Positions 18,277-18,916 of a DNA stretch of 64,000 nucleotides are shown in pieces. The notes below the pieces were generated by a model that was given only the letters and a program-made list of their open reading frames with translations, was not told the DNA's origin and did no database searches. Each line of letters opens with the position of its first letter. Position 1 is the stretch's first letter. Source of the stretch: Clostridiales bacterium UBA1742 (GTDB taxonomy: Bacteria > Bacillota > Clostridia > TANB77 > CAG-508); assembly GCA_002314935.1 (NCBI GenBank), contig DCHW01000013.1, forward strand, positions 7,247 through 71,246, written 5' to 3'. A program made the translations under genes and the position numbers.

Positions 18277-18295
18277 AGAGGTTAATCTCTTGCTT
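18277..18295. repeat. 19-bp direct repeat flanking the composite element (left copy); part of the scpA terminator hairpin
   Basis: AGAGGTTAATCTCTTGCTT, identical to 18898-18916. Confidence 0.85.
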
Positions 18296-18350
18296 GTAGT
18301 AAATTTATGATAATATCACCTTAGAACTTCCTAAGCAAATATTTCACATT

Positions 18351-18373
18351 GTAGGGGCGATTTTAATCGCCTG
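18351..18373 (-). repeat. REP-like element, copy 2 (inverted orientation)
   Basis: GTAGGGGCGATTTTAATCGCCTG. Confidence 0.85.
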
Positions 18374-18374
18374 T

Positions 18375-18711
18375 TTAAAAATATTTATCTGTTTGCCAAT
18401 TTATTACATTATTTTGTATATATTCCTTTATTTTTAAATATTCTTTTTCATTTCGTATAATGTGTTCATAAAATAATTTTTGCCATATCGAATATTTTAT
18501 TTCTCTACTTATATTTGTTTTTAGATGCTTTATTATTTTTGATATTGTTGTTTCAGTTTTATAATTTATTAATAATAGAATATGTATATAATTTGGCATT
18601 ACTGCATAATCATCTATTTTTATATTTTTGTATATTCCATCTATTTGGTTTATATTTTGGTTAACAATTTCACCTTCCTTTGTTAATTCTATTTATTGTA
18701 ATAAAATACAT
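18375..18711 (-). pseudogene. REP-associated tyrosine transposase (RAYT / IS200-like Y1 transposase), decayed
   Basis: The C-terminal ORF ...DDYAVMPNYIHILLLI...SIWQKLFYEHIIRNEKEYLKIKEYIQNNVINW matches the Y1_Tnp pattern. The N-terminal MYFITINR lies in a different frame (an indel not at CGG). The HUH motif is degraded to YIH. An N-terminal segment is missing. Confidence 0.7.
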
Positions 18712-18727
18712 ATTTTTTTCAATATCT

Positions 18728-18750
18728 CGGGCGATTAAAATCGCCCCTAC
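18728..18750 (+). repeat. REP-like element, copy 3
   Basis: CGGGCGATTAAAATCGCCCCTAC. Confidence 0.85.
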
Positions 18751-18897
18751 ATTCTCTAATATTGAATTTTATACATAAAAAATTAAATCTTGAGCCTGCC
18801 TCCGTGGCAAGCAGATTAACTTAGAGATTACATATGGGTGAAATTTTCGCTAATAAAATAACGCTATTTTACAGTGAAATTTTCCAAAATCATTGAC

Positions 18898-18916
18898 AGA
18901 GGTTAATCTCTTGCTT
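18898..18916. repeat. 19-bp direct repeat (right copy); overlaps the scpA stop codon
   Basis: AGAGGTTAATCTCTTGCTT. Confidence 0.85.

Follow-up and report, generated by a model that had tools for sequence, protein, structure and literature searches.

In a 64,000-nt stretch of contig DCHW01000013.1 of Clostridiales bacterium UBA1742 (hereafter the window), the 3′ end of the scpA gene adjoins an insert of about 0.6 kb which contains repetitive extragenic palindromes (REPs) and is flanked on both sides by a long direct repeat. What kind of element is this insert, and how could such a repeat have arisen? Our analyses indicate that positions 18295-18898 are very probably (we put the probability at about 0.85) a non-autonomous derivative, that is a mobile insertion cassette or a miniature inverted-repeat transposable element (MITE), of a long-duplication, ISTde1-like insertion sequence (IS) of the IS1202 family (ISNCY).

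The flanking repeat and the boundaries of the element

The 19-mer AGAGGTTAATCTCTTGCTT has two exact occurrences in the window, at 18277-18295 and 18898-18916, as had been reported in a first-pass annotation of the locus. A third match, with two mismatches, is the palindromic partner of the hairpin at the left copy, and 0 of 100 dinucleotide-preserving shuffles contained three or more matches to the 19-mer. The exact ends of the element were determined by comparison with further copies (given below by their locus numbers, L). A T precedes GTA at 19 of 19 left junctions and an A follows TTGAC at 20 of 20 right junctions; we therefore define the element as 18295-18898, 604 bp on the plus strand (5′-TGTAGTAAATT...CATTGACA-3′), with termini 5′-TGT...ACA-3′ and with arms homologous to those of a 1,537-bp IS. 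Its plus strand corresponds to the orientation of the transposase gene in the full-length relatives. Ends of the form GTAG...TTGAC with duplications of 19-20 bp were considered and dropped, since the T and A are invariant and the outer bases do not match at L135 and L126, which confirms the TGT...ACA assignment. The duplication as first described is thus real, but by these junctions it measures 17 bp instead of 19 bp, and the element 604 bp instead of 602 bp. The true target-site duplication is the 17-mer GAGGTTAATCTCTTGCT, present in identical copies at 18278-18294, where it abuts the IS terminus TGT directly, and at 18899-18915; the outer base of the 19-mer on each side belongs to the IS terminus in one of the copies and to the target in the other one.

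The insertion hit the 3′ end of scpA (18903-19655, minus strand; Pfam SMC_ScpA, E 4e-27). Direct reading of the window bore out that the scpA stop codon (TAA, 18903-18905, minus strand) lies within the right repeat copy and a hairpin at the left one. The left copy is the 3′ part of the original scpA terminator hairpin, AAGCAAGAG-GTTAAT-CTCTTGCTT (18272-18295, minus strand), which has a single-copy equivalent in relatives. This hairpin consists of a 9-bp stem followed by a T run on the minus strand, folds with -12.2 kcal/mol (z = -5.3) and was the sole terminator-like site detected in the region; its last base (18295) is provided by the terminal T of the IS. The stop codon is kept and the hairpin is intact beyond the element, at a distance from scpA that is now 604 bp. 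For the annotation of this genome it means that scpA is intact, and uncoupled from its terminator.

Homology of the element to the IS is limited to its two arms, positions 1-57 and 462-604. The left arm (left inverted repeat, IRL; 18295-18351, plus strand), with the terminal inverted repeat TGTAGTAAATTTATGATAATATCACC, is 96.6% identical to positions 1-58 of the 1,537-bp IS in L125. The right arm (right inverted repeat, IRR; 18756-18898, plus strand), ending in ...ATTGACA, is 88% identical to IS positions 1396-1537, with values of 88-94% across comparisons. By direct reading, IRL and the reverse complement of IRR match at 16 of 26 positions. Each arm contains the motif GTGA(A/T)AT(A/T)T twice, putatively for transposase binding, an additional, Tn7-like internal binding repeat close to each end being a trait of the IS1202 family; the inner copy of the left arm is reversed (about 18335-18346), and the right arm has two direct GTGAAATTTTC motifs at 18838-18848 and 18874-18884. 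A hairpin candidate in the right arm (about 18771-18835) was weak and not significant by folding (z = -1.6, and -2.1 in the second copy described next), and searches with Rfam at gathering thresholds and with ARAGORN gave nothing in or near the element.

Arm and REP identity revealed a second copy of 329 bp at 61586-61914 (plus strand), with the same arms and two REPs (61639-61659, plus strand, and 61750-61770, minus strand) around a 90-nt spacer that contains no open reading frame (ORF), and with no gene for a REP-associated Y1 transposase (RAYT). Junction comparison gives it an 18-bp duplication, ATTATATTTTAAATAATT on the left (61568-61585) and ATTATATTTTAAATTTTT on the right (61915-61932), the two being identical at 16 of 18 positions. 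The right duplication overlaps the stop codon of a clpC-like gene by 2 nt. We considered that this gene might be truncated and rejected it, as the translation shows the gene running off the window.

Full-length relatives and family assignment

A scan of metagenomes with a 20-mer from the conserved core of the right arm returned 24 loci/contigs, and the same 20-mer had no match among viral contigs. Two other patterns, a 24-mer from the left arm searched in genome contigs and a 21-mer from the right arm searched in metagenomes, gave no matches; both were overly specific to the strain, as relatives differ from them by single bases. The two arms lie about 1,535 bp apart in at least 15 of the 24 contigs, and the interior there is free of REPs.

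The full-length IS from gut metagenomes (about 1,537 bp) encodes a 423-aa protein with helix-turn-helix (HTH) domains at its N-terminus and a weak rve match. For NCBIfam NF033594 (ISNCY family transposase), which has a cut-off of 250 bits, this protein scored 405 bits (E 3.4e-121). It shares 33% identity with the product of a plasmid gene annotated as 'IS1202-like element ISEsa1 family transposase' and 29.5% with that of another annotated as 'ISNCY-like element ISKpn21 family transposase', and both ISEsa1 and ISKpn21 are listed members of the IS1202 family (PMC10132070). The signature of the family is a DD pair between D1 and D2 and a Q seven residues past the catalytic E (bioRxiv 10.1101/2022.12.17.520857). 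Direct reading of the L121 transposase gives QADGT ... FIDDATG ... YPDKYS ... GRIERLWETLQ, in which the DD pair (FIDDATG) and the Q at E+7 (GRIERLWETLQ) are both found; this applies to the full-length relatives only. The window element encodes no transposase, although the full-length relatives that share its ends do, and we therefore class it as a non-autonomous derivative and not as an IS. Its termini agree with those of the family: TGT...ACA, which is published for IS1202 and also for Tn7 (PMC10132070), and imperfect inverted repeats of the usual length of about 22-29 bp.

Within the family, formerly the ISNCY/IS1202 group, the closest resemblance is to the ISTde1-type elements (ISTde1, ISHahy13, ISCARN53/62/63), a subgroup that has been reported in Firmicutes (PMC10132070; bioRxiv 10.1101/2022.12.17.520857). 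[quoted passage not shown] The likeness extends to the 1.5-kb full-length relatives with their 423-aa HTH and DDE protein, DD pair and Q at E+7, and to the TGT...ACA tips, inverted repeats that are imperfect and about 26 bp long, inner motifs repeated near the ends and duplications of 17-18 bp. The present elements differ from the published ones in that the window element has no transposase, in that duplications reach 18 bp vs. the published 15-17 bp, and in that the copies adjoin -35 boxes, whereas no target preference is published.

The window copies share with MITEs and mobile insertion cassettes the inverted repeats of an IS, the lack of a transposase, the duplication length of the parent and the presence in several copies, two of them (604 and 329 bp) in the window. 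A known mobile insertion cassette is MIC231 of Bacillus cereus. As in such cassettes a passenger gene is found between the ends (in L085 and L137), but here the passenger is a transposase-like RAYT with its own REPs. The 604-bp copy is best described as a decayed mobile insertion cassette and the 329-bp copy as a MITE of an IS1202-family IS.

Duplications at other copies

Long direct repeats were also found around full-length IS copies: 18 of 18 positions match at L121 and L127 and 17 of 17 at L135, and at L126 the repeat is 17-18 bp with one indel. The sequence of the flanking repeat differs at every locus. Duplications of 15-17 bp are published for the ISTde1 subgroup, of 17 bp for ISTde1 and ISHahy13 and of 16-28 bp for the long-duplication group (bioRxiv 10.1101/2022.12.17.520857; PMC10132070). 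The lengths seen here, 17 bp (first copy, L135), 18 bp (second copy, L121, L127) and 17-18 bp (L126), agree with these, the 18-bp cases being 1 bp over one published range and inside the other.

The 19-bp repeat had at first been taken as the sign of an unusual insertion mechanism. That view can be dropped, as long duplications made by DDE transposition are documented for the IS1202 family (bioRxiv 10.1101/2022.12.17.520857; PMC10132070); the repeat at scpA would be the normal footprint of a known, if little-studied, IS family, which deflates the idea of a new mechanism.

Target choice next to promoter-like sites

Directly next to the duplication on the IRL side is TGTCAA or a close variant. 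Read on the other strand, the order is IS, 17-18-bp duplication, TTGACA, 17 nt and TATAAT, often with TG. For 19 distinct left junctions we scored the match to the -35 and -10 consensus (out of 12) in this fixed register, with random positions on the same contigs as controls. A score of at least 9 was reached by 12 of the 19 junctions vs. 1.3% of the control positions (binomial P ~9e-19). Loci with an adjacent promoter-like site are L113, L114, L117, L119, L121, L122, L124, L126, L127, L130 and L134, together with window positions 61562-61567 and 18272-18277. The second copy fits well, with TGTCAA at 61562-61567 (minus-strand TTGACA), 17 nt and TACTAT.

At scpA the fit is weak (3 + 4 of 12). 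Direct reading gives a promoter-like site on the minus strand at 18249-18277, with TTGCTT (18277-18272), 17 nt and TGT-TAAGAT (-10 at 18254-18249); it abuts the duplication and lies upstream of a gene for 120 aa (18209-17847). In relatives the corresponding position retains TTGCTT-N17-TAATAT or TATGAT, and a homologous gene of 110-120 aa lies downstream of it. In this lineage (L006, L008 and L009; 18249-18277 in the window) the conserved promoter-like site of the next gene takes its -35-like TTGCTT from the descending stem of the scpA terminator and has an extended -10 (TGnTAATAT).

The least improbable alternative is that the element specifically targets terminator hairpins or palindromes, and that the repeat results from cutting on both sides of the hairpin; the targeting of hairpins had also been suggested in the first-pass annotation. 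The scpA site indeed folds strongly (-7.4 kcal/mol as DNA vs. a mean of -0.94 for random 32-mers from the same contigs), and the duplication of the second copy is a weak, AT-only palindrome. However, folding at 17 of the remaining 18 target sites does not exceed that of random 32-mers, the duplications of L121, L127 and L135 are not palindromic, and only one of the 19 sites folds well. What recurs is a TTGACA-like hexamer abutting the duplication; the stem at scpA happens to be such a hexamer, and the promoter is kept in relatives. We regard terminator hairpins as a very improbable general target.

We instead lean slightly towards the view that this clostridial IS1202-family element and its derivatives are promoter-directed, with the IRL placed exactly 17-18 bp upstream of -35 hexamers, and that the same ends captured a RAYT and its REPs. 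The first six bases of the IRR tip of the element itself are TGTCAA, which in reverse complement gives TTGACA, and the end-binding domain of the transposase could therefore read the hexamer. Alternatively, the transposase may sense a sigma factor or RNA polymerase bound at the promoter, or the pattern may reflect only the survival of harmless insertions. The promoter is kept intact and only its upstream context is altered, a possible reason why such insertions are tolerated.

Published work on the family detected no preferred target in its long-duplication subgroups (PMC10132070; bioRxiv 10.1101/2022.12.17.520857), and our literature searches for promoter-targeting IS elements gave nothing relevant. 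In the ISAba32/ISAjo2 subgroup of the same family, which inserts at XerC/D sites (dif, pdif, xrs), the recognised site, a duplication copy and the IS likewise follow each other in one orientation, as the TTGACA-like hexamer abuts the duplication on the IRL side here. The differences are a duplication of 17-18 bp vs. 5 bp and a -35 hexamer vs. a Xer site. Promoter-adjacent insertion is not previously reported for this IS1202 subgroup and is the part that merits follow-up: with 12 of 19 insertions in the exact promoter register, it offers a testable model of target choice by IS1202-family transposases.

The REP and RAYT cargo

Between the arms, exact repeat search located two REPs in inverted orientation, the GTAG-tagged palindrome GTAGGGGCGATTTTAATCGCC at 18351-18371 (plus strand) and a second one at 18730-18750 (minus strand). 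This 21-mer has seven exact copies in the window and none in 100 shuffles. Three of them are solo REPs identical to those of the element, all intergenic and on the minus strand (14340-14360, 31581-31601 and 41350-41370), and one of the three precedes the start of a prepilin-like gene (13494-14312, minus strand) by 27 nt.

The REPs enclose a RAYT pseudogene (18378-18692, minus strand), which corresponds to residues 45-149 of intact 149-aa homologues. A 74-aa ORF matches Pfam Y1_Tnp with its C-terminal half only (profile positions 49-121). The remnant is 85% identical to residues 45-149 of the intact protein P0001, has the HUH motif mutated from PNHIH to PNYIH (His to Tyr) and retains an out-of-frame N-terminal piece, MYFITINRINKGR*, at 18670-18711. 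No intact RAYT is present in the window. A complete cassette of 782 bp with the same arms and an intact 149-aa RAYT was found in L085, and a partial one, also with a 149-aa RAYT, in L137, where the contig ends within the right arm (P0001 and P0002 are the products of L085 and L137). The best NCBIfam family for P0001 is REP_Tyr_transpos, at 62.7 bits and below the 80-bit cut-off. Relative to L085, the window copy shows a deletion of about 178 bp that removed the RAYT 5′ region, in addition to the His-to-Tyr change. The junctions of arms and REPs are identical in all versions of the cassette, and therefore the module was captured once. The interior of the 329-bp copy (61638-61771) is a long imperfect palindrome in which the two inverted REPs are extended by about 45 nt each; over 142 nt its self-complementarity is 76%. 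This makes it resemble a REPIN (a REP doublet forming a hairpin) and not a cassette that simply lost its RAYT gene.

More distant RAYT loci (L086-L112, L138) have REP-RAYT-REP without the IS arms, from which it follows that the arms are not part of the REP/RAYT system. Arm-less homologues of this kind (P0010, P0011, P0014, P0031 and P0087) contribute no insertion sites. The insert had been annotated as a composite REP element, with the REP unit as the mobile entity. In our reading the mobile entity is a transposase-less IS1202-family derivative, and the REPs and RAYT pseudogene are its unusual cargo. For this cargo alone the features of a REP/RAYT system are present, a Y1/HUH RAYT gene (here a pseudogene) between inverted, dispersed GTAG palindromes. 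Known REPIN/RAYT systems have the same arrangement, with further REPs scattered in the genome, and RAYTs are usually described as single-copy, vertically inherited and without flanking duplications. Here the module lies inside IS ends, in several copies and decay states, and the duplication derives from those ends. With the transposases of IS200/IS605 the cargo gene shares the Y1 superfamily (Pfam PF01797), but members of that family insert 3′ of a fixed tetra- or pentanucleotide and are without terminal inverted repeats and duplications, both of which the present element has. A literature search found no report of a RAYT as cargo of an IS.

That the REP-RAYT unit transposed itself through its Y1/HUH enzyme, by a variant mechanism giving a 19-bp duplication, appears very improbable. 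The RAYT remnant between inverted REPs would fit such an event, and the left terminus reads GTAG like the REP tag. Yet the same termini and 17-18-bp duplications flank 1.5-kb DDE elements which have neither REP nor RAYT, the IRL of most full IS copies starts with TGTATT and not GTAG, the distant RAYT loci have their REPs without arms, and the three solo REPs of the window lie outside such arms. The earlier remark that no repeat of this kind is to be expected from a Y1/HUH enzyme was right.

Many close RAYT homologues (149-150 aa; P0001-P0120) are on contigs of about 0.76-1.06 kb, near the 782 bp of the cassette, which suggests a multicopy cassette that interrupts the assembly of many gut metagenomes. 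L089 and L092 encode the same RAYT (P0031) and are identical in RAYT, REPs and right flank; their left flanks differ from a point just beyond an additional inverted repeat, AAAAATGTAGAGT...ACTCTACATTTTT, which encloses the REPs. The pattern is a hint that some RAYTs lie within another, larger unit that is mobile or recombines.

The empty site in relatives and the absence of scpB

The closest ScpA relatives in the genome collection come from uncultured gut Clostridia, including Clostridium sp. CAG:452 (73-79% identity). Their scpA genes end in ...EKARD*, and a single hairpin holds the stop codon in its loop (for example GAGAAAGCAAGAGATTAGTCTCTTGCTTTTTGAATA). In three of them TTTTTTATGTTAA comes after this hairpin, exactly matching the left flank in the window. 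The relatives carry the repeat sequence once, not duplicated in the absence of the element, and have one intact hairpin, in agreement with the earlier proposal that the scpA 3′ end and its terminator were contiguous before the insertion. The reconstructed empty site is predicted to be AAAAAGCAAGAGATTAACCTCTTGCTTTTTTATGTTAAG, and an unoccupied scpA site in a strain of the same species would read ...GCAAGAGATTAACCTCTTGCTTTTTTATG. The identical filled site was found in two independent metagenome assemblies, both contigs breaking inside the repeat.

Two further alternatives are weaker still. Integration by a site-specific recombinase, with the 19-mer as a duplicated attachment (att) core, would account for long exact direct repeats at both ends and at a gene 3′ end, but is extremely improbable given that the repeat differs per locus, that no recombinase gene is present and that the inverted termini are of IS type. 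In such an AT-rich, repetitive region the repeat might also be imagined to stem from local tandem duplication or slippage, or from chance, without any mobile element. This is likewise extremely improbable, with the 19-mer recurring in none of the 100 shuffles and single in relatives, the same length and register around independent copies, and a chance of about 5e-7 per site (from base composition) for a match of at least 16 of 18 at a fixed register.

The gene order scpA, 110-120-aa gene, ytfI-like gene and ytfJ (YtfJ by Pfam) is common to the window and to the relatives with an empty site. It is true that scpB is missing downstream of scpA, as had been noted, but its absence is unrelated to the insertion: the empty-site relatives also have no scpB there.

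A model for the insertion

Taken together, we propose that the ends alone of an IS1202-family element were retained, namely an IRL of about 57 bp and an IRR of about 143 bp with the TGT/ACA tips and the repeated inner motif, and that the DDE transposase gene of about 1.3 kb was replaced by a REP-RAYT-REP module whose RAYT would since have decayed in the 604-bp copy. The 423-aa DDE transposase would be supplied in trans by a full-length IS elsewhere in the genome or community. It would cut the target with a 17-bp stagger, and gap repair would then give the 17-bp duplication. The insertion point would be 17 bp directly upstream of the -35-like TTGCTT, which doubles as the descending stem of the scpA terminator; because of this double role, the duplicated segment holds the final codons of scpA with its stop and the greater part of the hairpin. 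As the outcome, scpA would keep its stop codon and be cut off from its terminator, and beyond the element the intact hairpin would remain joined to the downstream promoter. The RAYT and the REPs would be passengers, with no role in making the repeat. If this is true, their position between IS ends would be a plausible route for the horizontal or intragenomic spread of REPs and RAYTs.

The transposition pathway is probably copy-out-paste-in, as proposed for the IS1202 family from circle junctions (bioRxiv 10.1101/2022.12.17.520857). To the left of where the IS starts in L118 (reverse strand), an IRR tip (...ATTATTGACA) precedes an IRL tip (TGTAGTTAATT), with 17 nt (CTTTGTTTTGCGCTAAC) between them, in short TTGACA, 17 nt, TGTAG. 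Either IS ends meet head to tail here, or the sequence is a circle junction such as would be expected from copy-out-paste-in.

Several observations weigh against this model. By tblastn no DDE transposase was found anywhere in the 64-kb window, nor is there a full-length IS in it, so that the source of transposase in the genome is assumed. Placement in the ISTde1-type subgroup rests on duplication length and termini. Exact look-ups of the 249-aa ScpA and of RecA returned filled-site contigs only and no true empty site of the same species, the nearest relatives being just 79% identical in ScpA. The duplication of the 329-bp copy has two mismatches. Finally, the flanks of further copies gave a mixed picture: the long repeats are there at the second copy and at L121, L127, L135 and L126, but 9 of 15 complete copies on metagenome contigs have none (eight full-length IS and the L085 cassette; L085, L113, L114, L119, L122, L124, L130, L133 and L134). 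The left-flank promoter signature is kept in 7 of these 9, and coverage is about 2.5-7x among the contigs whose names record it. Given the low coverage, the multicopy repeat and the signature in 7 of 9, we assume that the missing duplications reflect chimeric assembly across a multicopy repeat or recombination between IS copies; Siguier et al. likewise explain missing duplications by chimeras or by recombination between copies.

Elsewhere in the window, a D-alanyl-D-alanine carboxypeptidase-like gene (dacB/PBP5 type) at 15292-16529 on the plus strand appears to be divided into three overlapping or adjacent ORFs, 15292-16002, 16127-16315 and 16269-16529, which may reflect frameshifts or a pseudogene.

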